Positions 404 through 33,805 of a stretch of 64,000 nt of DNA are shown piece after piece. Each line of letters opens with the position of its first letter. Position 1 is the stretch's first letter. Below the pieces are notes generated by a model that saw only the letters and a program-made list of their open reading frames with translations, had not been told where the DNA came from and ran no database searches. The stretch spans positions 29,804-93,803 of the IMG/VR virus record IMGVR_UViG_3300009008_002419. One strand, written 5' to 3'. A program made the position numbers and the translations under genes. This DNA comes from a virus.

Positions 404-436
404 AGCCCACCCTAGTACTCCTAGGGTGGGCTTTTC
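404..436. terminator. Rho-independent terminator between convergent units
   Basis: Perfect 12-bp stem AGCCCACCCTAG / CTAGGGTGGGCT, 5-nt loop, T-run on the + side. Confidence 0.85.
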
Positions 437-438
437 AT

Positions 439-541
439 TGGTGAGGCAGCAGAGAGGCTTCATTACGGCCCAGGATGCTGCAACATCCCGCCGAGGGCAC
501 GGGCTATTAACTCCGTACGTAAGTCAGCATCATACTACCTC
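439..541 (-). ncRNA. Structured tRNA-like RNA ending in ACCA (103 nt, unknown family)
   Basis: Minus strand: 5' GAGGUAGUA pairs with UGCUGCCUC followed by A-CCA; internal hairpins GUACGG/CCGUGC and GGGAUGU/GCAUCCU. G-U pairs form only on the minus strand; GC-rich island in an AT-rich genome; TATAAG 6 nt upstream. Confidence 0.6.
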
Positions 542-554
542 AAGATTCTTATAC

Positions 555-872
555 CTAAAAAGTATCAGGTTTTCCCCATTTGTCTTCGAGCAATAATAGT
601 GTTATTACTGCGTAATTTGCCAAGTCTTCGAGAGTGTCAATAATTTTTTCATCTGGGATGGCAGGGCGATTTTCATCCCATAGCAAAGTCTTAAGTCTAG
701 AGACTTTGTCCCAAATTCTAACGTAACACCCTTTTGCACCCAGTGCCCCGATGTTGTCAGCTCCATAATCATGGTTTTTAGATTTAGCTAATTTATATAG
801 TGCAATTAACTCTGTTTCAAAGTGACCTAGAGTTTCATCAACATCTTTTTCTATTAAATTTAGTGTACCCAA
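555..872 (-). CDS. DUF1599 / nucleotide-modification-associated domain protein
   Basis: KNHDYG...RIWDKVSRL...DTLEDLANYAVI motif pattern; directly downstream of the DNA polymerase. Confidence 0.8.
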   Translation of the reverse strand: MGTLNLIEKDVDETLGHFETELIALYKLAKSKNHDYGADNIGALGAKGCYVRIWDKVSRLKTLLWDENRPAIPDEKIIDTLEDLANYAVITLLLLEDKWGKPDTF

Positions 873-2629
873 TGGTGGTCTATTTCCGGTTTAACTTCCA
901 TTTTAATGTCAGGCGCAAAGTGATTAAACGCCTTGACCATTTCTTCTTGAACTATTTGTGCTGCTTGCTCAGCATGATCTTTATGTACTTCAACTAATAT
1001 TTCGTCATGAACTACATTAACCAAATATGCATCAAGTTTTACTTCTTTAAGTGCGTCATAAACTTTGTAGAGTGCGAGTTTAGTAATACTTGCACCTGCT
1101 CCTTGGAAAGGAAAGTTTTTTGCAATATTTTCTGCATGACGCCTACTTTTTCCATTATCAAAATCAAGATTTGATAAATCTTCTCGCCTGTGGTCTAATG
1201 GACTATAGGCATAATTTTTACTTAGGGCCTCTGCAGCAAACGACTTCATCAACGCTTTAATGCGTGGGAAATTTCGGAAGTAGTTGTACTGTAACTGCTT
1301 TGCTTCCTTAAATGGAATGTTTAATTGATTAGCTAATTTGCCTGGCCCCATTCCATACATATTCCCGAAAGTAATACTTTTGGCAGCGCCTCGTTGCACC
1401 TTAGTTACTTCTTCATACGGGACATCAAATACTAAACTAGCTGACATACTGTGTAAGTCTTTCCTCTCTTCTAACCACTTTAAGAATTTTGGCTCTCTAC
1501 TTAGGTGGATAAGCAGTCGTAATTCTTGGTTAGAAAAATCAGCTGATATAATACGATAATCTTTATTCTTGGCTGTAAAGGCAGCTCTATAAACTGCCTC
1601 ACCTGGGATATTTTGGAGATTGGGTTTGTCACTAGAATAGCGCCCAGTCTCAGTTCCACCTAATTGCCAGAATGAAGAGTGTAGTCTATTAGAAGGAGTT
1701 TTTAGATGTTGATTTAAAAATTCTTCGCCATAAGTAGACACAAGTTTGGCTTGGCTGCGATAATTTAATAGAGCTGTAATTGCAGGGTGTTTAATATTTT
1801 TTAGTACAGGTTCAGATGTACCTTTAAGATCATCTTTACCTGTTAACTTTTTTAGAACTGGTAATAGTTGTTTTGGAGAGTTAAGATTAAGAGTAACTAC
1901 CCCAAACATATCAGTTTCACAGTAAGGCTTTAGATGCCCATCTAGTTCGGCTTTGTACTCATCAACCTTTTTCTGTGCGACAACTTTTAGGGCCTTCCAT
2001 TTTTCAGTGTCAACATGAATACCGTTTAGCTCTAAAGCTGAGGTGGCTCTGACTGTGTTATACTCTAATTGAGCTAAATTATACATATCACGTTCTTTTA
2101 ATAATGTTGTCAGGTGCGTGAATAGTGGTATTAAATGTTCAGTGTCTTCTCTTGCATATTCTAATTGTTCCTCAGTAAAAGGATCTCCTAATTTCATACC
2201 TGCAAAAGAGCTTTGCTCTTCTTTGCTTATAGAGACCCCAATATACTTATCTAGCACAACATCTAAGCTATGTTTGTTCTGTCTCTTACCTTGTGAGAGG
2301 AGTAAATCTGCTAGCATGGTATCTGCTAAAGGGTTTATTTCTACTCCAAAGTTTGTAAGGGTCATTTGAAAATCATACTTAGAATTATGCATGATTTTAA
2401 CAATGTCTTCAGAATTTAATTTCTCTAAAATAAGCTTTATTAATTCAGGACCTAATTTAAAGACATCTAATACAAATTGTTTATGCGCATTGCCAATTTG
2501 TATTAATAAAACTTTGTCGGTTAATGGATCTAGTCCAGTAGCCTCTACATCATACGCTAATAGCGACTGATTTTTAATAAAGCTAAGTACTTCTTTAAGT
2601 TGTTCTTTTGTTGTAATGTAATAATCCAT
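860..2629 (-). CDS. polA: Family A DNA polymerase with 3'-5' exonuclease (no 5'-3' nuclease domain)
   Basis: ExoI DVEATG, ExoII HNSKYD, ExoIII YAREDT; motif A ADFSNQELR, motif B RGAAKSITFGNMYG, motif C VHDE. Confidence 0.95.
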   Translation of the reverse strand: MDYYITTKEQLKEVLSFIKNQSLLAYDVEATGLDPLTDKVLLIQIGNAHKQFVLDVFKLGPELIKLILEKLNSEDIVKIMHNSKYDFQMTLTNFGVEINPLADTMLADLLLSQGKRQNKHSLDVVLDKYIGVSISKEEQSSFAGMKLGDPFTEEQLEYAREDTEHLIPLFTHLTTLLKERDMYNLAQLEYNTVRATSALELNGIHVDTEKWKALKVVAQKKVDEYKAELDGHLKPYCETDMFGVVTLNLNSPKQLLPVLKKLTGKDDLKGTSEPVLKNIKHPAITALLNYRSQAKLVSTYGEEFLNQHLKTPSNRLHSSFWQLGGTETGRYSSDKPNLQNIPGEAVYRAAFTAKNKDYRIISADFSNQELRLLIHLSREPKFLKWLEERKDLHSMSASLVFDVPYEEVTKVQRGAAKSITFGNMYGMGPGKLANQLNIPFKEAKQLQYNYFRNFPRIKALMKSFAAEALSKNYAYSPLDHRREDLSNLDFDNGKSRRHAENIAKNFPFQGAGASITKLALYKVYDALKEVKLDAYLVNVVHDEILVEVHKDHAEQAAQIVQEEMVKAFNHFAPDIKMEVKPEIDHHWVH

Positions 2630-3444
2630 TAATCGTCTTCTATATGCATTTCTAGGCGTGAAGCCCGATGTTTTTTCTGTAATTTCTCAATTACAGCTTT
2701 CTTTATTTGTCGTATTCGTTCTCTAGTTAATCCTAAATCAATCCCGATTTCTTCTAATGTGTGTCCTCGCATTTCACCAATTCCGAAATACATTTTAATT
2801 ATTTCTTGCTCACGTTCTGTGAACTCACTTAGAACATCGTCTATATCTTTTGATAGGTATTGATCTTCAAGATCTTTAGATGGTGGTGCATCATCACTAG
2901 GCATTATTTCATGAATAGTTTTATTAGTTTGTTCATGGGGTTTATCTATATCCACATAAGTAAATAATAAGTTATCCAGTGTGTCATAAATGCCGTGCTT
3001 ACTTAATTCTTGGTACAATTCTTCAATTGTAGGCGGTCGTCCCACATCCTGCTCAAGCTCAACTTTTATCTTGTTGATTTTTCCAACAAGTGAAATTTTA
3101 TTAGCAGGTAATCTTATTAATCGGGACAGTTCATGAATACAATTGATTATTGATTGTCTAATCCACCAGACTGCGTAAGTTATGAATTTAATGTTGCGAT
3201 CTATATCAAAGTTTTCATAAGCCTTCATTAATCCATAATTGCCTTCACCAATTAAGTCTTCTAAAGGTATGCCTTGTCCTTGGTATTGTTTTGCAATACT
3301 AACCACAAATCGTAAATTGGAACGAATTATCTTTTCTTTTGCTCGTTCGTTACCAGCCTTTGCTTTCACAAAGAGCAAATGTTCCTCTTCTTTAGATAGT
3401 GGAGGAATATCTTTTATTGTTTCAAAATAGTGTGTTAGGGACAT
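2629..3444 (-). CDS. RNA polymerase sigma-70 factor, short RpoD/RpoS type lacking region 1.1
   Basis: Region 2 SNLRFVVSIAKQY and KFITYAVWWIRQSI; region 4 TLEEIGIDLGLTRERIRQI. Confidence 0.95.
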   Translation of the reverse strand: MSLTHYFETIKDIPPLSKEEEHLLFVKAKAGNERAKEKIIRSNLRFVVSIAKQYQGQGIPLEDLIGEGNYGLMKAYENFDIDRNIKFITYAVWWIRQSIINCIHELSRLIRLPANKISLVGKINKIKVELEQDVGRPPTIEELYQELSKHGIYDTLDNLLFTYVDIDKPHEQTNKTIHEIMPSDDAPPSKDLEDQYLSKDIDDVLSEFTEREQEIIKMYFGIGEMRGHTLEEIGIDLGLTRERIRQIKKAVIEKLQKKHRASRLEMHIEDD

Positions 3445-4422: not shown

Positions 4423-4855
4423 TTAGTACACGTACCTCAGTAATGTGTTCCCACTCTCGGTTGTCTTCATCTCCGTCCCAATAGTAGAAAGCTAGGTTAT
4501 TAAATTTTGGTGAATAGATGATGTAAATTCCTTTATATCCAGCTCCGTTATGATCTGTCATAGACGGGATTGGTAGATTATTTGGATGTGTATGAAAGAT
4601 GCCTATAAAGTCTTTATCCGCTGATTTCTTCACTAATCTGGTGTCTTTAATGATTTGAAAGAATTCAGTCGGATCAGGCATATAATGAACAACAGCCATA
4701 TCACCAGGAGTGATATTAGTTGTTGGTGTAAACTCTTTAATCTCCCATTCATCGCCTTGTTGGCCAGTAAGCACTCCACAGACTTCTACTGTGGAGTGCT
4801 CATCGCCATAATCTGCAAGTTGCTGTAATAAAGAATTCTCTACAGCTACTTTCAT
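4412..4855 (-). CDS. JAB/MPN+ (Mov34) metallo-isopeptidase
   Basis: EVCGVL...FHTHPNNLPIPSMTD is a complete E...HxH-x7-S-x2-D JAMM motif. Likely ATG start at 4855 (MKVAVE), right after the Ubl stop. Confidence 0.92.
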   Translation of the reverse strand: MKVAVENSLLQQLADYGDEHSTVEVCGVLTGQQGDEWEIKEFTPTTNITPGDMAVVHYMPDPTEFFQIIKDTRLVKKSADKDFIGIFHTHPNNLPIPSMTDHNGAGYKGIYIIYSPKFNNLAFYYWDGDEDNREWEHITEVRVLNGE

Positions 4856-4856
4856 T

Positions 4857-5096
4857 CTAACCCCCAACGAGGGCGTTAGTTAATGTAAGATCTTCTGCTT
4901 CAATTAATTCGTCAACTGTTACATCCTGAGGATTTCTGTTGACGCCATCAATGTAAAGCCACTTATTCTGTTTGTCACACCGCTCGGTGATTTCTGCTAA
5001 TGCTTGACCAGCAGGAACTTCAATTTCATCGTGACCCGCAGTTGATACTACATTTAACTGTACTTTAGTAAATCTTTTATCTTTGTCAATTGCCAT
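4857..5096 (-). CDS. Ubiquitin-like beta-grasp protein ending in Gly-Gly
   Basis: 79 aa; strand-strand-helix-strand pattern; WLYIDG; C-terminus LTLTNALVGG-stop; adjacent to JAB and E1. Confidence 0.85.
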   Translation of the reverse strand: MAIDKDKRFTKVQLNVVSTAGHDEIEVPAGQALAEITERCDKQNKWLYIDGVNRNPQDVTVDELIEAEDLTLTNALVGG

Positions 5097-24618: not shown

Positions 24619-25424
24619 TCTATTACCACCTTTGTGGGGCTATCTGGTTTCGCTATAACGAATTTATCGGTATAGTCAGGAAATTCTTGCTCAATTTTAC
24701 TTTGTACAAGCTCAGGACTGTTTGTGTTTTTACTTAAATGTCCAAAGATAATCTTTTGTACTTTGTCTAAATCAATGTTATTTTTTACAAACTCAATTGC
24801 CTGATTAGAGCTTAAATGCCCAGTTGCGCTTTTTATTCGTTCTTTCAACTCAATTGAATAATCAGCGTTCTTTTCAATCTCGTCTTCATCGTAGTCAGCC
24901 TCAATAAAATAGGCATCGCAGTCTTGCAATGCCTCTCTTATCACAGGAGTAATCATTCCTGTATCTGTTAAGTAGCCAAACTTTGGTCCCTTGGGGTATT
25001 GTTCAATAACAAAGCCTAAACTATATTCTGAATCATGTTTAGTGCTAAATGAAGTTACAGTCAAGTCGTGGCCAATCGCATACTTAGTCCCAGGTTTTTG
25101 CATCAGAAAAGTTTTCGATTCTTGAACTCGCGGTAGCTTTTCTTTTTTAGCCTCATATACTTTTTCATGTATATAAACCATTGGATGCTGTCTTTCAGAA
25201 TATTGAGCACAAATGACATCTAAACCTTTAATATGGTCACTATGCCCATGTGTAATAAATATTGCGTCGGGAATATTAGTACCATGTCTAAGAGAGACTG
25301 ACTCTTTGAACTCATTAAATTTTCTAACTCCTATTCCTGCATCAATAATAAGGTTTGTCGTTTCAGTAGTAATTTGAGTGCTATTACCTGAACTACTGCT
25401 TACCATAAAATTTAAGACCATCAT
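24615..25424 (-). CDS. Metallo-beta-lactamase-fold nuclease (YycJ/WalJ-like)
   Basis: SSSSGN, IDAG, THGHSDHIKG, TDTG, IEADYD, GHLSS, GHLSKNTN. Confidence 0.9.
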   Translation of the reverse strand: MMVLNFMVSSSSGNSTQITTETTNLIIDAGIGVRKFNEFKESVSLRHGTNIPDAIFITHGHSDHIKGLDVICAQYSERQHPMVYIHEKVYEAKKEKLPRVQESKTFLMQKPGTKYAIGHDLTVTSFSTKHDSEYSLGFVIEQYPKGPKFGYLTDTGMITPVIREALQDCDAYFIEADYDEDEIEKNADYSIELKERIKSATGHLSSNQAIEFVKNNIDLDKVQKIIFGHLSKNTNSPELVQSKIEQEFPDYTDKFVIAKPDSPTKVVIE

Positions 25425-28168
25425 TAAGTAATAATACCTGCTTTGAATACCATCACTTTTACGCTTTGTTTATTAAGCTTTCGTGATACTTGTTTATCAT
25501 GCAAGATTAGCCCCTTTTTATGTAAATCTTGTACAATGGCTCCAAGAGAGTGAGCAAGTTCGCCACTTAGTTTTTTATAAATGTAACTATAAGCTTTTTG
25601 CCCAATAATACAAACTTCATCTTCCATTTTAGCGTTGGTCAATCTCCACCCAATAATAGGAGTTCGTTCAGTATCTAAGAAAGTTTTATTATCGTCTTGC
25701 AATCTAATTTCGTTAGTTGCTATACCTTCTTGAAGTGTACTTAAGAATATTTCAGAAGCCATCTCTTCTGCAGATTCATTGACTTGTTCTTTAGTTTTAG
25801 TAACCAAGAAAGTTTTAAATTTGTTTTGATTTTTTACCGCGTCCGCTTCTTTCCACAAATATTCGCTAATTACTTTATAGCTTGCCATCATTAAAGCGAC
25901 GTTTCGAGATATTCTAGCATCATTAGGATTGCCTTTTACATGCTCATGAAACTCTGTTTCATAAGCTTCAAACGAATCGCTGATTTTGTTTGGGTCTAAG
26001 CCCAATACATGTTGAATGTATCTTGCAGTAAACCCAGGAAATAAATGCTGGATTTTTTCAATAGCTTTACCTTTAACTCTGTCTTTAAATCGTGGGTGAC
26101 AGTCTACAAGTATAGTTCGTGCTAATGTTGATGCTTCTCCACCTGGAGTATCCTCACCTGTGGATGCTAGAAATCCTGAGATTGTTTTAGTCTTTTGCAT
26201 CTTAAGATCAGAGCGTGATCTTGCACGAGAGGTGTTGTCAGCGTAGTTCTGCATGAGTGTGATAGCGTAATCGTAACTCGAGTTTTTACCGCCAAAATTT
26301 CTAAGTTTAAAGTCATCAATGATATACAAAGCGTCTTTAAATAAGTAACCTACGTTATGAAGAGCTGTTGCAGTCGAAGTCCAAGACATTAGGTTTGTAA
26401 ATGTTCCATAGAAGTTCTGGAAGAACTTCATAATATAAGACTTACCATCGCCCGATCTACCTCGAACAAAGTAAGAGTATTTTGTCCGCTCACCTTTAAT
26501 AAACGGAAAAATAATAGGTAAGAATGTGTGAGCTAAAGCAGAATGTGTGTAATTATAGTTACTAAGATCTAAAAGATTTATTAGCCCTTCCTTAGCAGTG
26601 TTAAACTCTTCGTCAGTCGGGTTCATAAGATCTAAACCTTCGGCAAGATCTTCTCCTGTTAAGTCATATTCCATTGTTTCATTATCAAAGATTCCATCTT
26701 TAGTAATAATTACAGAGGGCATACAATATCTATTAGGATAAAGATCCTCTTCTTTATCTTTATAATAACCAATAACTTGAGTAATTTCTCTGCGTTCAGT
26801 ATCAGCAAATTTATTCACACAATGACGAATTTTATCCAAATCTTTATGTATAAATATACCATCAATTCCAATAGCATTTGCTATCATTACTTTAAAACCT
26901 TCAGTATTAAAATAACGATCAACTCCTACTTGGAATTCTGCTGAACGCTCTGGACCTGTTATAATTCCATTAAAAAATTTGTGAGTATTAATGCCATCAT
27001 CAATAATGATTTCTTCATTGATATCAATAGTGAAATTAGTTAGTTGTCCATATAACGGTTCATTCTTAGCAGGATCTGCATTTGGGAAAAACTCATAGTA
27101 CCCGCCATCGAGCATTCTATAGTTTTCAAGCGGGTCAGCTAAGATCTCAGCAAGATCTCCAGTATCTCCCAGAGCTTTTTTATAGAATACAATTGGACTG
27201 TTCCAACTACCAATGTTCCGACACTGTGCTGGACATATACCTTGTTCTTGTAACTTACTACAACGAATAGGTTTATAGCCTTTTCCATTAATAGCAGTCT
27301 TCATTTTTTCAATGTGATAGTTACTAGTGTCAGGATTATAATACTCTAATTGTGGTAAGAGTATCTCTCTAAGATAGCGTTCTCCTTCATCTTCTCCATG
27401 ATTGTGAGAAGCATTAATCAAAATATAACCTAAAGCTAAAAGTTCATCATTAGTTAATTTTTTTTCTTTAAATAATTTGTCTTTAATAGCTTGCAGGGCT
27501 ACACATTTTTTAAAAATATTTTCAACAGGGCTAGTTGCATTCTTGAAAGAATCTTCTGTGGCATACTGAACTTCATCAAAATCATTGATATTAGTAAATA
27601 CGCTAAATTTGCCACTAGTTAAATGTTTACCATTAGGCCCTTTAACTAAGTTTCCAGAACTTCCTTTTTCAACCCTTGCTTGTTTAGGAAATAACTCTAA
27701 GTGAATATTCCCAATCTCTTTTATGCCTTCCATCATTTCACGAAGGCCATTATATACAATTTCAGAGCTTACAGGCTCTTTGAAGAATACCCAAACATGA
27801 TATCCCTTATAACCAGAAAACTCCGTATAATGAGGGATTCCTTTTTCTTTAAAAATATCTTCAACATAACCTGTTTGCTCTTGCAGTTTAGGGAGCCAAT
27901 CATCCAAATTAAAGTTGGGCGCAGTGTACACTGGTTTATCTAAGTCAATGTCTACTACAGCCCACTTTAATGTATTCTGTTCTGGAATGATTTGATAGAG
28001 TCCAATAGTTTGTTCACCGTTTAGATGCTTCTGAATTATATCATCGGTAAGGTGTTGCTCTGTTGGAATATGTGCACGATTTGGTAATTGAACCGTGTAA
28101 TTATCGTCACGATGGACAAAAAGTTCCCTAAACTTTGTTGTATTCATTTGATTCTTATCTCTTCCCAT
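25424..28168 (-). CDS. AEP primase fused to a Cys-rich PriL-like domain and a P-loop helicase
   Basis: VVDID, EFSGYKGYHVW, ELFPKQ; CVAL...KPIRC...CPAQC; Walker A GRSGDGKS; IIDD; STGE. Confidence 0.85.
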   Translation of the reverse strand: MGRDKNQMNTTKFRELFVHRDDNYTVQLPNRAHIPTEQHLTDDIIQKHLNGEQTIGLYQIIPEQNTLKWAVVDIDLDKPVYTAPNFNLDDWLPKLQEQTGYVEDIFKEKGIPHYTEFSGYKGYHVWVFFKEPVSSEIVYNGLREMMEGIKEIGNIHLELFPKQARVEKGSSGNLVKGPNGKHLTSGKFSVFTNINDFDEVQYATEDSFKNATSPVENIFKKCVALQAIKDKLFKEKKLTNDELLALGYILINASHNHGEDEGERYLREILLPQLEYYNPDTSNYHIEKMKTAINGKGYKPIRCSKLQEQGICPAQCRNIGSWNSPIVFYKKALGDTGDLAEILADPLENYRMLDGGYYEFFPNADPAKNEPLYGQLTNFTIDINEEIIIDDGINTHKFFNGIITGPERSAEFQVGVDRYFNTEGFKVMIANAIGIDGIFIHKDLDKIRHCVNKFADTERREITQVIGYYKDKEEDLYPNRYCMPSVIITKDGIFDNETMEYDLTGEDLAEGLDLMNPTDEEFNTAKEGLINLLDLSNYNYTHSALAHTFLPIIFPFIKGERTKYSYFVRGRSGDGKSYIMKFFQNFYGTFTNLMSWTSTATALHNVGYLFKDALYIIDDFKLRNFGGKNSSYDYAITLMQNYADNTSRARSRSDLKMQKTKTISGFLASTGEDTPGGEASTLARTILVDCHPRFKDRVKGKAIEKIQHLFPGFTARYIQHVLGLDPNKISDSFEAYETEFHEHVKGNPNDARISRNVALMMASYKVISEYLWKEADAVKNQNKFKTFLVTKTKEQVNESAEEMASEIFLSTLQEGIATNEIRLQDDNKTFLDTERTPIIGWRLTNAKMEDEVCIIGQKAYSYIYKKLSGELAHSLGAIVQDLHKKGLILHDKQVSRKLNKQSVKVMVFKAGIIT

Positions 28169-28545
28169 TTAACTTTTTTGTCCAATATTAGTTTCTTAAT
28201 TCGTTGTTGGTTTTTATTAAGCCTAGCGTTTCCAGATTTAACTTCAATAAACGTTACTGCTTCATCTCCAAATACAACCAAATCAATAGGCATTCCAAGA
28301 AATTGGGTTTGTCTTGGATTATGCTTGAAGGACTTTAAAAAAGGTACGAATTTTTCCGCGATTTGTCCAGTAACAACTTCACTACTTTTCTTCTGGGACA
28401 AAAGTTTTTTGTAGTTTTCTTTCTCCATAGCGAGTTCGTCTTTAAGTTCGCGGCAAAGAAGTTTTATTCGGTGAAGCTTATAAATAACCCACCATGCAAT
28501 AATAGCAGTAGCTATTAAGGATAATGTTAAAATACCTTCAATCAT
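28144..28545 (-). CDS. Holliday-junction-resolvase-like PD-(D/E)xK endonuclease with N-terminal TM helix
   Basis: GQIAEKFVP, FLGMPIDLVVF, FIEVKSG; hydrophobic N-terminus. Confidence 0.85.
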   Translation of the reverse strand: MIEGILTLSLIATAIIAWWVIYKLHRIKLLCRELKDELAMEKENYKKLLSQKKSSEVVTGQIAEKFVPFLKSFKHNPRQTQFLGMPIDLVVFGDEAVTFIEVKSGNARLNKNQQRIKKLILDKKVKWEEIRIK

Positions 28546-30021
28546 TTAAGTCCTTAGTTTCTTATCACAAACGAAATTACAAAAAACTCCACACTTTAGT
28601 TTCCCGTTTTCAAAAGAATCTGATCGATTTTCTTGAACTTGTATTTGAGTACTAAAGAAATGAGGTGCACCTAAAGGACAATTAATTTTGATTGCATTCT
28701 TAATTGTTCTTTTTAAATTTTGTGCTTTGTTGTTTATATTGTCATAAAGAATTTTATTCTTTAAAAAATGCTTTACATAAACAAGTGCATTCTCTGGATC
28801 GTCTGTATGGTTATCAATAATTTTAATTATATCTTTGTCAGTGATATTTAATTTGAAATCTTCTGGGGATATTTTTTCTAGCTGTTTATTTACTCTCTTA
28901 CGTAAAAATTCAACTTTCTCCATACTAATGTTTGCCCGCCCTGTACCATATCTATCTGCGATACGCAGATCTAATAAATTATGTATATTGTCGGGCCCAG
29001 CTTTATTAATGAGCTTTCTAACACTTAAGTCAGAGATTTTCTTTGACGCATCAAAAAGATGAAGGGATACTAAAGAACTTATTTTTTTAATAAAATCTTT
29101 TTTGAATCCCCATCTAAATAAAATACGTTCAGTGAGAAAAGCTCCTGCTTTCTCATGCCCATAAAAATGTAACTCATCATTAATATTAGTTTGGCACTGA
29201 GGTTTACCAATATCATGTAAAAGAGCGGCTGCTCTGATTATTTTACAACGCGGGTGCGACAGTTTAACAGAGTCAAGCGCATACATAATATGTTGAAAGA
29301 GATCTAGATTTTTACGTTTATTTGATTGTGGTATGCCTGTGCATAATGCGAGTTCTGGAAAAAAATCATCTAGAATTTTTGCAGAGCGTAGAATATTAAA
29401 AACTTTAGAAGGAGTTTCAATCCGTGTAAAGATTTTAAGCATTTCTCTATTGATTTGAGCAGAATGTGCTAAGACCAGTTTAAATCGGTAATCTTTTATA
29501 GCCTCATTAGTTTTTGTTTCTAATGACCAGCCCGTACCTAGTAAACCAGCTAATACAGGCGCACGTAAGATACGGACTTTTGATTCTAAGATCTTTTTAT
29601 AAGGATCTCCGATAAATTTTATTGTCTTGTTTTCTAAATCCTTTTCACCATCAAAAAAATCATACCACTGATCATTTAGTGGATCGTAGTATAATGCATT
29701 GATTGTGAAATCTCTTGACTCGGCATCCTCTTTTAGTGATGCTGTATATTCAAATTTGTAATAAGTATTTTCGAGCCAAACTCTTTTCATAGGATACAAT
29801 GTAAAGTCTGTATCCATGTATCTAATTGTAACTGAAGTAGAAAAAGGATCAATATTGATAATTTTATCCTTGAAGCTTTTCTGTAATTCAGTTAATGTGG
29901 CTTTTACAGATATGTCATAATAACGGATTGTGTCTTTTAATTTTAAATCTCTTGCTGTTCCCCCACAGATGTAAGCTGTGTATCCGTGAGATTTTAAGAA
30001 TTTGATAATACTTTTAACCAT
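28546..30021 (-). CDS. CCA-adding enzyme/poly(A) polymerase family protein with HD domain (degenerate NTase motifs)
   Basis: GGTARD, SRDFTINAL, RILRA; HD domain LLHDIGKP, FYGHE, ADR. Confidence 0.88.
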   Translation of the reverse strand: MVKSIIKFLKSHGYTAYICGGTARDLKLKDTIRYYDISVKATLTELQKSFKDKIINIDPFSTSVTIRYMDTDFTLYPMKRVWLENTYYKFEYTASLKEDAESRDFTINALYYDPLNDQWYDFFDGEKDLENKTIKFIGDPYKKILESKVRILRAPVLAGLLGTGWSLETKTNEAIKDYRFKLVLAHSAQINREMLKIFTRIETPSKVFNILRSAKILDDFFPELALCTGIPQSNKRKNLDLFQHIMYALDSVKLSHPRCKIIRAAALLHDIGKPQCQTNINDELHFYGHEKAGAFLTERILFRWGFKKDFIKKISSLVSLHLFDASKKISDLSVRKLINKAGPDNIHNLLDLRIADRYGTGRANISMEKVEFLRKRVNKQLEKISPEDFKLNITDKDIIKIIDNHTDDPENALVYVKHFLKNKILYDNINNKAQNLKRTIKNAIKINCPLGAPHFFSTQIQVQENRSDSFENGKLKCGVFCNFVCDKKLRT

Positions 30022-31521: not shown

Positions 31522-32042
31522 ATAATTTTTCCTAAAATATGGTCATACTCATGTTGTAGTATTCGTGCAAACAATTTACTATTGGTTCCTGTTACCTTCA
31601 TAGTTTGACGTTCAGCACTTTTTAAATCATAGAAGGAAATAGTCACATTTTGTTTTCTTCTGACTGATTTTGGTTTACGGTCAGGCAAACTTAAGCAACC
31701 TTCTTCCATTTTAATAGTAGGACCGTTTGATACTACAACAGGGTTAATAAACTCTCTCCAAGCATAAATTTCTTTACCATCTTTTGTAGTTACAGGCCAG
31801 ATTGATATAAAAATTGCAGGGCAAGGTTCGTCAGGTGAATCCCAGATTTGGTTAGCACACAATCCTAGACATTTGTCTTTATGTTCCTGTGCAGTATCCT
31901 TTAAATTTTCAATAGTTTGCACAACATCAGGTCCCCAAAAAGGACTGTCGGACATTGGAGAATCTAAAACAGGCTCAACCATTTCACAGGGTTTCGATAA
32001 AGTTTCTTTATCTTTGGGATATGTATTAATTTTTTTAATCAT
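31518..32042 (-). CDS. def: Peptide deformylase
   Basis: GLCANQI, EGCLS, QHEYDH; truncated C-terminus as in other phage PDFs. Confidence 0.93.
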   Translation of the reverse strand: MIKKINTYPKDKETLSKPCEMVEPVLDSPMSDSPFWGPDVVQTIENLKDTAQEHKDKCLGLCANQIWDSPDEPCPAIFISIWPVTTKDGKEIYAWREFINPVVVSNGPTIKMEEGCLSLPDRKPKSVRRKQNVTISFYDLKSAERQTMKVTGTNSKLFARILQHEYDHILGKII

Positions 32043-32740
32043 TTTTCATTATCTTTTTTATTATTCGCTTTCTCTTAAGAAATTGCGAGTGTAGTAGGTC
32101 AACCTTGTGGTCATGAAAATCTATAATGGCAGCACTAGTTTTTCCCATAGCTTTGCGCATTAGTCTTCCAGCCGACTGCCTAATTTTAATTTCGGATTTA
32201 ATAGGTCCTGCTAAAAACAAAACTTCTAAGCTTGGAAAATCAATTCCAGTGCTAAACAGACCGTAAGTGGAAATAATAACTTTAATCTTTCCAGCTTTAA
32301 GTCGTTTCATAATTTCTGCCCGTTTCTTTTTAGGCATTTTGGAAGTTAGTTTTTCGGACCCCTTTATTTTACTGTTCAAGTACTCGACCTGTGATAGTCG
32401 AGAGCTAAGGATACAGATAAATTTGTCTTTATTTAGTTCGGCTTGTTTGAGGATCAGCTCGTTTCTGGCATGATTTTGTGATAAATCATTCAGCATTTCC
32501 TGATATTCAGTAGTACTGAAAAGCGGAAAATAATAGTCTGTTTTTATTTCTTCAAAAGTAGGAGTTATAAGAACATTCTCTAATTTCTTTTTTTCTACTG
32601 TATGGATTTTAGGACCAGTGGCTAAAAATATAACCTCAGTTAATCCGTCTTCTCTTCTGGGGGTAGCACTAAAACCAAATTTATACTTTGCGGTTAGTTT
32701 TGTTAGCGCTCTATAATATGTTTGTGCTGCGACAATATGT
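32035..32740 (-). CDS. SF2 DExH helicase, exon 2
   Basis: Frame HIVAAQTY...GFSATPRREDG...STGIDFP...QSAGRLMR (motifs III-VI) is open upstream of the 32496 ORF. Confidence 0.9.
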
Positions 32741-33805
32741 CAATTTGTTATCCTAAAGACTTTTTATTCTTTAGTTCTTATAATTAGCTTATAAGTTCGG
32801 CGTACTTTTTTACCTTATACTGGTAAGTACTTAGGTATCGGACACTCTTGGTAGAATTATATTTATTCATCTACTACGCTCTACACTGCTAATTAGCCTT
32901 ACGCTATCTAATTAGTTAGCACGGAATTAGCTCATTTAATCAGCCTTCTCCGTTTTTGCCCAATTATAATTTCTGATTTTTCAATCAAAAACGGCACATG
33001 CTTTTTTAAACATTTCTTTTTTTCGTTCCAAACAAACAGAGGTATCATTATATAAATATTTATATAATTCTTTAATTTTTTTATTATCTGAAGTTGAAAT
33101 ACGAAAACATGTTATTTGATCTAAGGTTTTACTATACTTTATTTCACTAATTTTATTTGGAAGACGCAATACATCCTTAGTCCAAGTTATGATTGGTTTG
33201 CTTCCTACTATACTAAAACCAGCTCTACACACTGTTTTTCTTATATAAATTGACCCATCACCATCAAACAACCCTCTAATAAAATGTCTTATTAAATGAT
33301 CTGGAACATTTTCAGGTGGTTTTAAAATCAAAGATTTTTTAGGTATACATCCTTGTTTTATTAGGTCTGTGTGCATTTGTTTGTCAGTAAATTCTAATCG
33401 TTTTGTATTATGACCTTTAACATTCTGTATTTTGTTTTTAAGATTTAATGCCTGTTTAAGCTTACTTAAGTGTTCTATGTCTTTTGTATGTAAAGCTAAG
33501 CTAATGCCTAGATTGTGTGAATGCACACAACCGTCTGCGTAAAGAAATCCAAGCCAATAAGCTTTTTCTTCTGTGTCTATGTCAGCAAAAAAATCTTTTT
33601 TTCTGTCAATTGGTGTATGACAGTGATCATAATCTCTAACAATTCCGTGTTCATGTAAAGTTTTATAAACTTCTCTTTTAGACGAAATGTTTAATTCTTC
33701 CATAATCTGGTACGCGGAATATCCTTTTTTGTATAAAGTAAGAATTTGGTTCTTCATACTTTTTAGTGTACGTACTAATATGGAGTTTGTCAATAGCTTA
33801 ATTGT
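32741..33805 (-). mobile_element. Group I intron (1065 nt) interrupting helicase motif II
   Basis: Splicing GAT GAG GT|A CAT restores DEVH (456-aa protein). The 5' exon ends in U and the intron ends in G. The core (32741-32980) has P3-like UUGGGCA/UGUCCGA and P7-like GCGUA/UACGC pairings. Confidence 0.92.
32981..33793 (-). CDS. Intron-encoded double-motif LAGLIDADG homing endonuclease
   Basis: AYWLGFLYADG and HFIRGLFDGDG, LERK; N-terminal HTH; alternative ATG start at 33757. Confidence 0.93.
   Translation of the reverse strand: MTNSILVRTLKSMKNQILTLYKKGYSAYQIMEELNISSKREVYKTLHEHGIVRDYDHCHTPIDRKKDFFADIDTEEKAYWLGFLYADGCVHSHNLGISLALHTKDIEHLSKLKQALNLKNKIQNVKGHNTKRLEFTDKQMHTDLIKQGCIPKKSLILKPPENVPDHLIRHFIRGLFDGDGSIYIRKTVCRAGFSIVGSKPIITWTKDVLRLPNKISEIKYSKTLDQITCFRISTSDNKKIKELYKYLYNDTSVCLERKKEMFKKACAVFD

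Follow-up and report, generated by a model that had tools for sequence, protein, structure and literature searches.

Introduction

To our knowledge, the non-coding RNAs of phages are poorly catalogued, and those of uncultured marine phages almost not at all. Among the small stable RNAs that have been described are RNA C/D (species 1 and 2) of phage T4, which have tRNA-type ends and are not tRNAs. Together with the M3 RNA of phage phi80 and the C4 RNA of phages P1 and P7, they form a set of non-coding RNAs of about 60-140 nt that phages encode. A terminal helix and a 3' end of the RCCA type let the tRNA-processing enzymes of the host define the ends of these RNAs, and both M3 and C4 are non-tRNA substrates of RNase P or tRNA end processing (PMC11143913). 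The element described here resembles them in size and in being phage-encoded and apparently non-coding. It is a 103-nt stretch on the minus strand (positions 541 to 439) of a 64,000-nt window, which corresponds to positions 29,804 to 93,803 of the IMG/VR virus record IMGVR_UViG_3300009008_002419. The window is the last 64 kb of this 93.8-kb record (hereafter the contig), which originates from marine metagenomes of a single study. The record is rated about 31% complete, and so the phage behind it probably has a large genome. Positions are those of the window, unless they are marked as genome positions.

An earlier note on this DNA had taken the element for a CCA-terminated, tRNA-like RNA with its own promoter-like motif. 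From the fold and the signals around it, we consider it likely that a real and independent small RNA (sRNA) gene is present. The fuller reading, a lineage-specific, independently transcribed gene for a structured sRNA that possibly carries a tRNA-like acceptor end, is one that we hold with about even confidence. Mimicry of the acceptor end as the mode of action is a tentative idea, which we would sooner expect to fail than to hold.

A Predicted Structured RNA on the Minus Strand

The element reads as the earlier note had it, and tests of its fold, base composition and strand all indicate more than chance. Its predicted minimum free energy is -42.2 kcal/mol, compared with -31.3 +/- 3.5 kcal/mol for dinucleotide shuffles (z -3.14), and one of 200 shuffles equals it. 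The plus-strand copy reaches -27.4 kcal/mol, which is no better than its own shuffles (z +0.28). Because the reverse complement folds poorly and the fold depends on G-U pairs, we assign the structure to RNA of the minus strand rather than to the DNA. When 103-nt segments were slid along both strands of the contig (mean -17.1 kcal/mol, sd 5.5), 4 of 12,494 were at or below -42.2 kcal/mol, and three of these four are at the element locus, which has the most stable fold in the 93.8-kb contig. The element is also rich in GC (56%, against 37% for the genome). Its region ranks second in GC among the contig's 100-nt windows, and the gap in which it lies is the richest in GC of the 14 intergenic gaps of at least 70 nt.

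The predicted fold begins and ends with the 9-bp terminal stem that the earlier note had described, in which nt 1-9 pair with nt 91-99 through seven Watson-Crick and two G-U pairs, and the discriminator A and the encoded CCA follow directly after this stem. Next comes a rod, whose small internal loops include a possible tandem G-A (G17 A18 / G81 A82), and then a three-way junction with a 4-nt linker, CCUC. The two internal hairpins that had been noticed are both present in the fold (hairpins A and B in Table 1), the second being the supposed variable arm. Most of the pair probabilities across the 103 nt are 0.8-1.0. The loop of hairpin A has to be redrawn, however. It had been given as GUUAAUA with a central UAA, which would leave an A-G mismatch as the closing pair; the fold instead bulges A30 and closes with G31-C39. 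This gives either a 3-nt loop or the 7-nt loop UUAAUAG, and since both are possible, any "anticodon" in hairpin A is ambiguous. Each of the two hairpin loops holds a self-complementary tetranucleotide (UUAA and UGCA, respectively).

A Probable Promoter Shared by Related Phages

The element is preceded by the motif GGTATAAGA. As had been recorded earlier, six bases separate its TATAAG hexamer from G541, and the position of the hexamer sets the predicted +1 seven bases later, at G541, which is also the first base of the terminal stem. Copies of GGTATAAGA were counted in the contig and in five related IMG/VR contigs, that is, contigs whose family A DNA polymerase (PolA) is 42-52% identical and whose gene order matches. 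There are eight copies in the contig and 14 in the five related contigs, compared with one for a reversed-pattern control. All of these copies are on the coding strand, and in each of the related records they share one strand. The contig's own copies are mostly in its scarce non-coding DNA, in the right orientation and 25-110 nt before gene starts, and when all copies are taken together nearly all of them lie 20-110 nt upstream of the starts of open reading frames (ORFs). A gene start is found no more than 120 nt downstream at 11 of 18 motif sites, whereas 1.3 would be expected (p ~6e-9, with crude gene calls). We read GGTATAAGA(A) as a strand-specific promoter common to a group of related uncultured marine phages, extended -10-like and placed behind a T-rich stretch. 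Either the host sigma-70 or the phage's own sigma factor may use it. A generic sigma-70 scan did not flag the site at the element, because the scan needs a -35 box and the motif has none. The GGTATAAGAA motif should be useful for annotating transcription units in this phage group.

Of the GGTATAAGAA sites in the contig, the element's alone has no ORF of at least 40 aa downstream. Since the +1 falls at the start of the stem and no such ORF lies behind the promoter, a discrete transcription unit at the element is well supported, as far as sequence signals can tell. The earlier proposal, of a discrete small RNA under its own promoter, is upheld in the same terms and on stronger grounds than before, by the group-wide motif, the predicted +1, the lack of an ORF of this length and the terminator. 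Together with the stable fold, these are the features by which a generic stand-alone sRNA gene would be recognized. RNA evidence comes from one metatranscriptome run, which gave a single 180-nt contig over 579-758, in the gene for the DUF1599 protein, and none over the element; such contigs are uninformative on expression.

The first 25 nt after the promoter resemble the beginnings of two small protein genes, GGTATAAGAATTATGAGGAGG..ATG and GGTATAAGAATTATGGAGGTGG..ATG (window positions -26624 and -26117), which have the same promoter, followed by a Shine-Dalgarno (SD) sequence, which the 5' strand of the terminal stem resembles, and an ATG. This likeness suggests that the element may have arisen from a copied promoter-leader cassette.

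Three of the promoter copies in relatives have a structure of their own. At L092 (G002:16505, minus strand), L090 (G003:7386, minus strand) and L093 (G001:37121, plus strand), a hairpin with a T run comes after the promoter, and a gene only after the hairpin. The distance from promoter to hairpin is 10-50 nt, and in G001 the stretch from promoter to terminator is about 50 nt. These promoter-proximal hairpins could be attenuators or very small RNAs.

The Downstream End

The element ends just before a terminator hairpin (432-404), as the earlier note had stated, with the spacer AUGAAA between the two. This single-stranded, A/U-rich spacer is a candidate cleavage site for an endonuclease of the RNase E type. 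In E. coli tRNA precursors, RNase E cuts 1-3 nt after the encoded CCA and exonucleases follow (PMC2190699). A terminator scan scores the 404..432 hairpin on the plus strand only. The fold of the wider region, 385-560, has a z of -5.7.

Distribution and Relatives

The interval that separates DUF1599 from the convergent gene differs in content from one relative to another. In two syntenic relatives with about 50% PolA identity (L061 and L062), it is 57-62 nt long and holds the terminator only. In L064/L065 (8988-9318), the gap is 329 nt long; it contains a hairpin, long but imperfect, and, behind an SD sequence, a small ORF for a hydrophobic peptide of about 25 aa. The junction of the convergent arms thus seems to be a hot spot at which small accessory units are inserted. 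Because L061 and L062 have a terminator only and L064/L065 have different content, we interpret the RNA unit as a lineage-specific accessory insertion with deviant GC at a variable spot.

Closer relatives exist as proteins, namely PolA sequences with 77% (P0002) and 72% (P0019) identity and DUF1599 sequences with 60-73% identity (P0123-P0125). These DUF1599 proteins keep a four-residue C-terminal extension, ..xxTF, which overlaps the T-rich part of the promoter. One of them, P0124 (71% identity), ends in ..TFFKV*, which is compatible with AAG GTA TAA, that is, with the motif in frame. If P0124 were so encoded, the in-frame motif would follow the loss of the usual DUF1599 stop. These observations hint that the promoter, at least, has been retained in the closer subclade.

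Searches for the RNA itself were negative throughout. Neither the element nor an 8-kb query gave a blastn match among GenBank phages. Exact patterns in IMG/VR gave no match for an 18-mer of hairpin A and five chance matches, in coding or terminator contexts, for a 17-mer of hairpin B. A pattern that joined the end of DUF1599 to the promoter found nothing, and a subclade DUF1599 pattern found 19 chance matches in GTDB genomes, none of them a DUF1599 gene. A single-sequence covariance model (R1), run over 725 kb of loci plus five whole related records, found only the element itself. A 65-aa plus-strand frame over the element, used as a proxy, had no match among 1.84 billion protein representatives, and the 56-aa ORF of the same frame (426-593) is absent from a collection of 15 billion proteins. 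A metagenome scan with PolA gave, among the matches listed, relatives at 34% identity or less only; P0002 as a query in IMG/VR gave distant loci only, and a DUF1599 alignment in IMG/VR gave no syntenic locus. The contig has no second copy of the RNA and no repeats of it beyond chance. In three DNA runs of one marine study, the locus is present with zero variants.

How the RNA Might Be Made and Act

The reading that we favor runs as follows. Transcription would start at G541 from the GGTATAAGAA promoter, and the 5' end would need no processing. The RNA would fold into a rigid Y, in which the terminal stem and the rod lead to the three-way junction and its two hairpins. The hairpin terminator common to both arms would stop transcription, so that the primary transcript would measure about 145 nt. 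The A/U-rich spacer after the ACCA would presumably be cut, and 3' exonucleases would trim back to the stem. The resulting RNA of 103 nt would have its 5' end paired and its ACCA free, which is the end structure of a mature tRNA. The CCA-adding/repair enzyme that the phage itself seems to encode (see below) could maintain the ACCA end.

Pairing takes up about 72% of the bases in the 103-nt RNA, which shows neither an extended unpaired seed nor a match to a target, and for these reasons protein binding is favored over base pairing with mRNA. The RNA would then act through its acceptor-like end, as a substrate, regulator or decoy for enzymes that work on tRNA 3' ends, among them the CCA enzyme of the phage. 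The T loop or elbow of a tRNA is what RNase P, EF-Tu and most synthetases rely on. The element has neither, which counts against the reading and would limit any mimicry to the acceptor end. A stricter version of the idea, in which the RNA is a purpose-built mimic of the acceptor end (a pppG 9-bp helix plus ACCA, lacking an elbow and a true anticodon) that works with the phage CCA enzyme, strikes us as very improbable. Under it, the RNA could serve as a sponge or decoy against host defence toxins whose target is the 3' end of tRNAs, or could regulate the repair enzyme; the toxins that might be drawn off include CapRel-type pyrophosphokinases, MenT-type nucleotidyltransferases and CCA-trimming nucleases. 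If it were true, the phage would have an RNA-based counter-defence that is not a tRNA.

Several other points weigh against an independent sRNA with a tRNA-like end. The element is a singleton, with no RNA homologue in any search, and the weight of the case is limited because it rests on one sequence. The minus-strand tail of the terminator (403-395, AAUUCUUAA) is poor in U. The 5' strand of the terminal stem doubles as a good SD sequence that is followed by AUG AUG. A CCA at this offset has a chance of about 1 in 64. Finally, the contig is about 31% of the genome, and in the roughly two thirds that are unseen there may be tRNA genes, which would explain the CCA enzyme without the RNA element.

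Alternative Explanations

The element could instead be a cis-acting structure in the 3'-untranslated region (UTR) of the replication operon (sigma factor, PolA and DUF1599), where it would protect against exonucleases or aid termination; the promoter would be inactive or secondary and the ACCA accidental. It sits immediately behind the stop of DUF1599 and ahead of the shared terminator, which agrees with this, and since the minus-strand terminator tail is weak, extra structure could help. Relatives at about 50% PolA identity nevertheless have a bare terminator at the same site. Moreover, a UTR structure would not call for the shared promoter signal to be present in full and to place its +1 exactly at the stem start, and the Y-shaped 103-nt fold exceeds what a stabilizer needs. 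We think a UTR structure unlikely.

It is quite unlikely that the element is a trans-acting, base-pairing sRNA, the functional 3' end of which would be the terminator and the seed of which would be the loops or the ACCAAUGAAAA linker. An architecture that runs from promoter to terminator is typical of bacterial and phage sRNAs, and the single-stranded linker is accessible between two stable domains. However, complementarity to the 93.8 kb of phage sequence never extends beyond 11 nt, and very little of the RNA is single-stranded.

Another explanation is that the element is a functionless scrap of GC-rich foreign or decayed DNA, which folds by chance beside a copy of the promoter. A singleton with deviant GC that is absent from relatives is what such a scrap would look like, and the one metatranscriptome run, uninformative as its contigs are on expression, adds no RNA contig over the element. 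A scrap would not be expected to have a fold that is strand-specific and extreme for the contig, nor a stem that starts exactly at the predicted +1, in a very compact genome that is about 96% coding. Chance folding of this sort seems to us very unlikely.

The SD-like sequence and the AUG AUG that follows it raise the question of a peptide. An 8-codon ORF, MMLTYVRS, could be a tiny protein or leader-peptide gene, with the fold regulating its translation or read-through of the terminator. The first 25 nt parallel the two real genes mentioned above, and the SD-to-AUG spacing of 4-7 nt is workable. The SD sequence and both AUGs are nevertheless buried in helices (pair probabilities 0.83-1.0) and no gene follows on the minus strand for 21 kb, and because of these two facts we rank the peptide gene low and regard it as highly improbable. 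An 8-aa product is also without precedent here, and the high GC and strand-specific folding point to selection at the level of RNA.

Comparison with tRNAs

The weakest of the explanations is an unorthodox tRNA. ARAGORN, run also in its intron, mitochondrial, tmRNA and low-threshold modes, predicts neither a tRNA nor a tmRNA, whether in the window, in the whole contig or in the five related contigs; at thresholds of 40-50% it returns nonsense models only. Rfam 15 has no match at gathering scores in the whole window, and at E<=10 the region 300-700 gives only a chance match to Xist. Neither an ordinary tRNA nor a known Rfam family is thus matched, and recognizable membership in the tRNA, tRNA-Sec, tmRNA, Y RNA/YrlA, C4, phi29 pRNA, ribozyme or riboswitch classes is excluded.

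The fold leads to the same result. A canonical tRNA (RF00005) or tRNA-Sec (RF01852) cloverleaf was sought with ARAGORN, with Rfam and in the fold, and none appeared. The best three-hairpin fold sits 2.2 kcal above the optimum and has no separate D arm and T arm, and there is no cloverleaf among the folds within 6 kcal of the optimum. The acceptor part does have a counterpart, a helix (9 bp, where 7 are canonical) followed by a discriminator A and CCA. Features of the elbow, a T loop (UUCRANY) and a D-loop GG, are absent, and the 3' acceptor strand has no hairpin directly beside it; UUC and a GG of the D-loop type are missing from the 103 nt, as the earlier note had already observed. In the predicted structure, the tRNA likeness is confined to the stem plus ACCA. 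The lack of any T-arm sequence also led us to reject a reading as an attP site or tRNA fragment.

Non-canonical tRNAs of the related 8/4 type (tRNA-Ser and tRNA-His) occur in phages. In the (9/3) allo-tRNAs the acceptor stem is 9 bp and the variable arm long, and some of them have anticodons that read UUA/UUG (Mukai et al. 2017, PMC5389517). The element resembles them in its 9-bp stem, in its long extra arm and in having UAA within a loop. It does not form the 12-bp acceptor/T branch of an allo-tRNA (9 bp plus a 3-bp T stem) or the cloverleaf. A 3-bp stem closing a 7-nt loop cannot be made from its nt 78-90, which pair with nt 11-23 in the fold. Nor can it form the tRNA-Sec-like D arm, since it is without a long D stem bearing a tetraloop, and it is invisible to ARAGORN. 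The possible 7-nt loop UUAAUAG would fit the pattern Y32-U33-NNN-R37, which happens by chance in 1 of 16 cases, and its central triplet would be AAU, not UAA.

That the element is a decayed tRNA-Leu gene, or a (9/3) allo-tRNA whose anticodon is UAA and whose variable arm is long, is scarcely credible and is largely refuted: although the 9-bp stem is followed by U-G, a UAA lies in a loop, an extra hairpin is present and allo-tRNAs that read UUA/UUG exist, the element has neither a 3-bp T stem with a 7-nt loop beside its 3' acceptor strand nor a long D stem with a tetraloop, and ARAGORN and the Rfam models for tRNA, tRNA-Sec and tmRNA are silent at permissive thresholds. The degenerate tRNA-Leu(UAA) that had been suggested earlier falls with it, as there is no T arm and no cloverleaf.

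Genome Setting and Other Genes

The contig has its replication genes on the minus strand and its virion and packaging genes on the plus strand, and by crude gene calls about 96% of it is coding. The RNA element lies in the 181-nt gap (374-554) that separates the two convergent arms; the converging plus-strand gene stops at 373, and the next minus-strand gene starts about 21 kb beyond the element. The phage encodes a large terminase of the conventional kind. No cultured relative with a PolA above 33% identity was found. The coordinates of the element and of the features that bear on it are collected in Table 1.

Table 1. Positions of the RNA element, its signals and the genes discussed in the text.
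Feature	Position	Strand	Remarks
Promoter motif GGTATAAGA	547..555	-	-10-like TATAAG at 553-548, upstream T-rich stretch, no -35; overlaps DUF1599 stop codon
Structured RNA body, 103 nt	439..541	-	G541 is the predicted +1 and first terminal-stem base; 3' end ACCA (442-439)
Terminal stem, 5' strand (RNA nt 1-9)	533..541	-	Reads GAGGUAGUA; pair probabilities 0.94-1.0
Terminal stem, 3' strand (RNA nt 91-99)	443..451	-	Predicted fold
Rod and three-way junction	454..531	-	Helices 11-12/87-88, 14-16/83-85 and 20-23/76-79; small internal loops between
Hairpin A (RNA nt 24-45)	497..518	-	6-bp stem, bulged A30, inner G31-C39, loop containing UUAAUAG
Hairpin B (RNA nt 50-75)	467..492	-	10 pairs, GG bulge, loop UGCA
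Tiny ORF, 8 codons, MMLTYVRS (AUG AUG ... UAA)	507..533	-	Behind SD-like GAGGU; belongs to the peptide explanation, not called as a gene
Single-stranded A/U-rich spacer AUGAAA	433..438	-	Joins ACCA to terminator; from sequence
Hairpin terminator, 12 pairs	404..432	.	Common to both convergent transcription units
DUF1599 protein	872..555	-	Last gene of replication arm
Family A DNA polymerase (PolA)	2629..860	-	Replication arm
Sigma-70-type factor	3444..2629	-	Replication arm
Class II nucleotidyltransferase, 491 aa	28546..30021	-	PolyA_pol head, RNA-binding and HD domains
Other GGTATAAGA(A) sites in the window	7893, 24142, 34531	-	Motif scan
Other GGTATAAGA(A) sites before the window	genome 3178, 3685, 3949	+	Motif scan
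GGTATAAGA(A) sites in related phages	loci L088-L101		Motif scan

The class II nucleotidyltransferase has, judging by its domains, the architecture of a bacterial CCA-adding/repair enzyme, and we infer no more than a possible link between it and the RNA. ARAGORN finds no tRNA gene in the 333 kb of the six related contigs. A second gene that looked like one for a nucleotidyltransferase with an HD domain, at genome 12415-13509 (plus strand, about 16 kb before the window and upstream of the terminase gene), has only weak matches to Polbeta/adenylate-cyclase-N and DUF5662; it was rejected as a CCA enzyme, not being of the PolyA_pol type.

The genome has some other features that deserve mention. The gene at 25424-28168 (minus strand) encodes a 914-aa protein with an AEP-TOTE domain (archaeo-eukaryotic primase, conflict-system type), and this gene adjoins one for a nuclease that resembles Holliday-junction resolvases (28144-28545). 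A 484-nt gap without ORFs (32497-32980) separates an ORF that has only a helicase C-terminal domain (32035-32496, minus strand) from a LAGLIDADG/HTH ORF (32981-33793, minus strand). The gap could be an intron or homing-endonuclease insertion that splits the helicase gene; Rfam has no intron model that matches at 32497-32980. The second most stable fold of the contig is at 4735-4875 (minus strand, 141 nt, -51.5 kcal/mol, z -5.3). It includes a perfect 14-bp hairpin just within the start of the JAB/JAMM gene, directly after the Ubl gene, and this hairpin may couple or throttle translation inside the Ubl-JAB-E1 operon.

Comparison with Other Known RNAs and Accessory Units

Several kinds of RNA were considered and set aside. 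A riboswitch or attenuator has no gene to act on, the next minus-strand gene start being about 21 kb off, and no riboswitch family is matched. Readings as a hammerhead or other ribozyme, or as a riboswitch, were rejected on visual inspection and with Rfam, and a retron was rejected because no reverse transcriptase was noted among the neighboring genes.

The YrlA/Y RNAs (RF02553) have ends that form a long terminal helix and a tRNA-like module, and they occur in large phages. The element resembles them in its paired ends, but it has no T-loop module and no Rfam match to the family. A Ro60/TROVE gene was not found in the contig, which is about 31% of the genome, in a search that detected its controls.

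The likeness to the phi29 pRNA (RF00044) is closer in outline. Both are phage RNAs of roughly this size (about 120 nt for pRNA) with their own promoter, and in both the paired ends lead through a rod to a three-way junction with two loops. However, pRNA forms rings by means of mutually complementary loops, whereas the loops UUAAUAG and UGCA of the element are not complementary to each other. The pRNA does not end in ACCA as the element does, and the element's phage has its conventional large terminase. There is no Rfam match to pRNA at E<=10.

Phage "morons" are independent accessory units of deviant base composition that run from promoter to terminator. The element is similar in that it has its own promoter and terminator, lies between conserved genes, has a deviant GC and is absent from relatives. 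The cargo of a moron is a protein gene, and that of the element is an RNA fold.

This leaves the phage small stable RNAs with which we began. The element has no sequence or covariance-model match to phi80 M3, C4 or T4 RNA C/D. In particular, the P1/P7 C4 antisense RNA (RF01695) is not matched in Rfam, and complementary sites of at least 12 nt are absent from the contig. The 5' end of the element is predicted to come from transcription initiation, unlike the RNase P-defined ends of the M3/C4-type RNAs. It also differs from the M3, C4 and T4 RNAs in its Y-shaped three-way junction, in lying outside a tRNA cluster and in having no antisense target that can be seen.

In conclusion, the element is best read as an orphan, promoter-driven gene for a structured RNA of the kind "phage small stable RNA with a tRNA-like end", which belongs to no Rfam family and is not a tRNA. 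The interest in it is raised by the presence of a CCA-adding/repair enzyme in the phage while six related contigs show no tRNA gene. If acceptor-end mimicry were true, it would bear on how phages counter defences that target tRNA 3' ends. The element would offer a compact test case for the reuse by phages of the host machinery for tRNA end processing and repair on RNAs that are not tRNAs.

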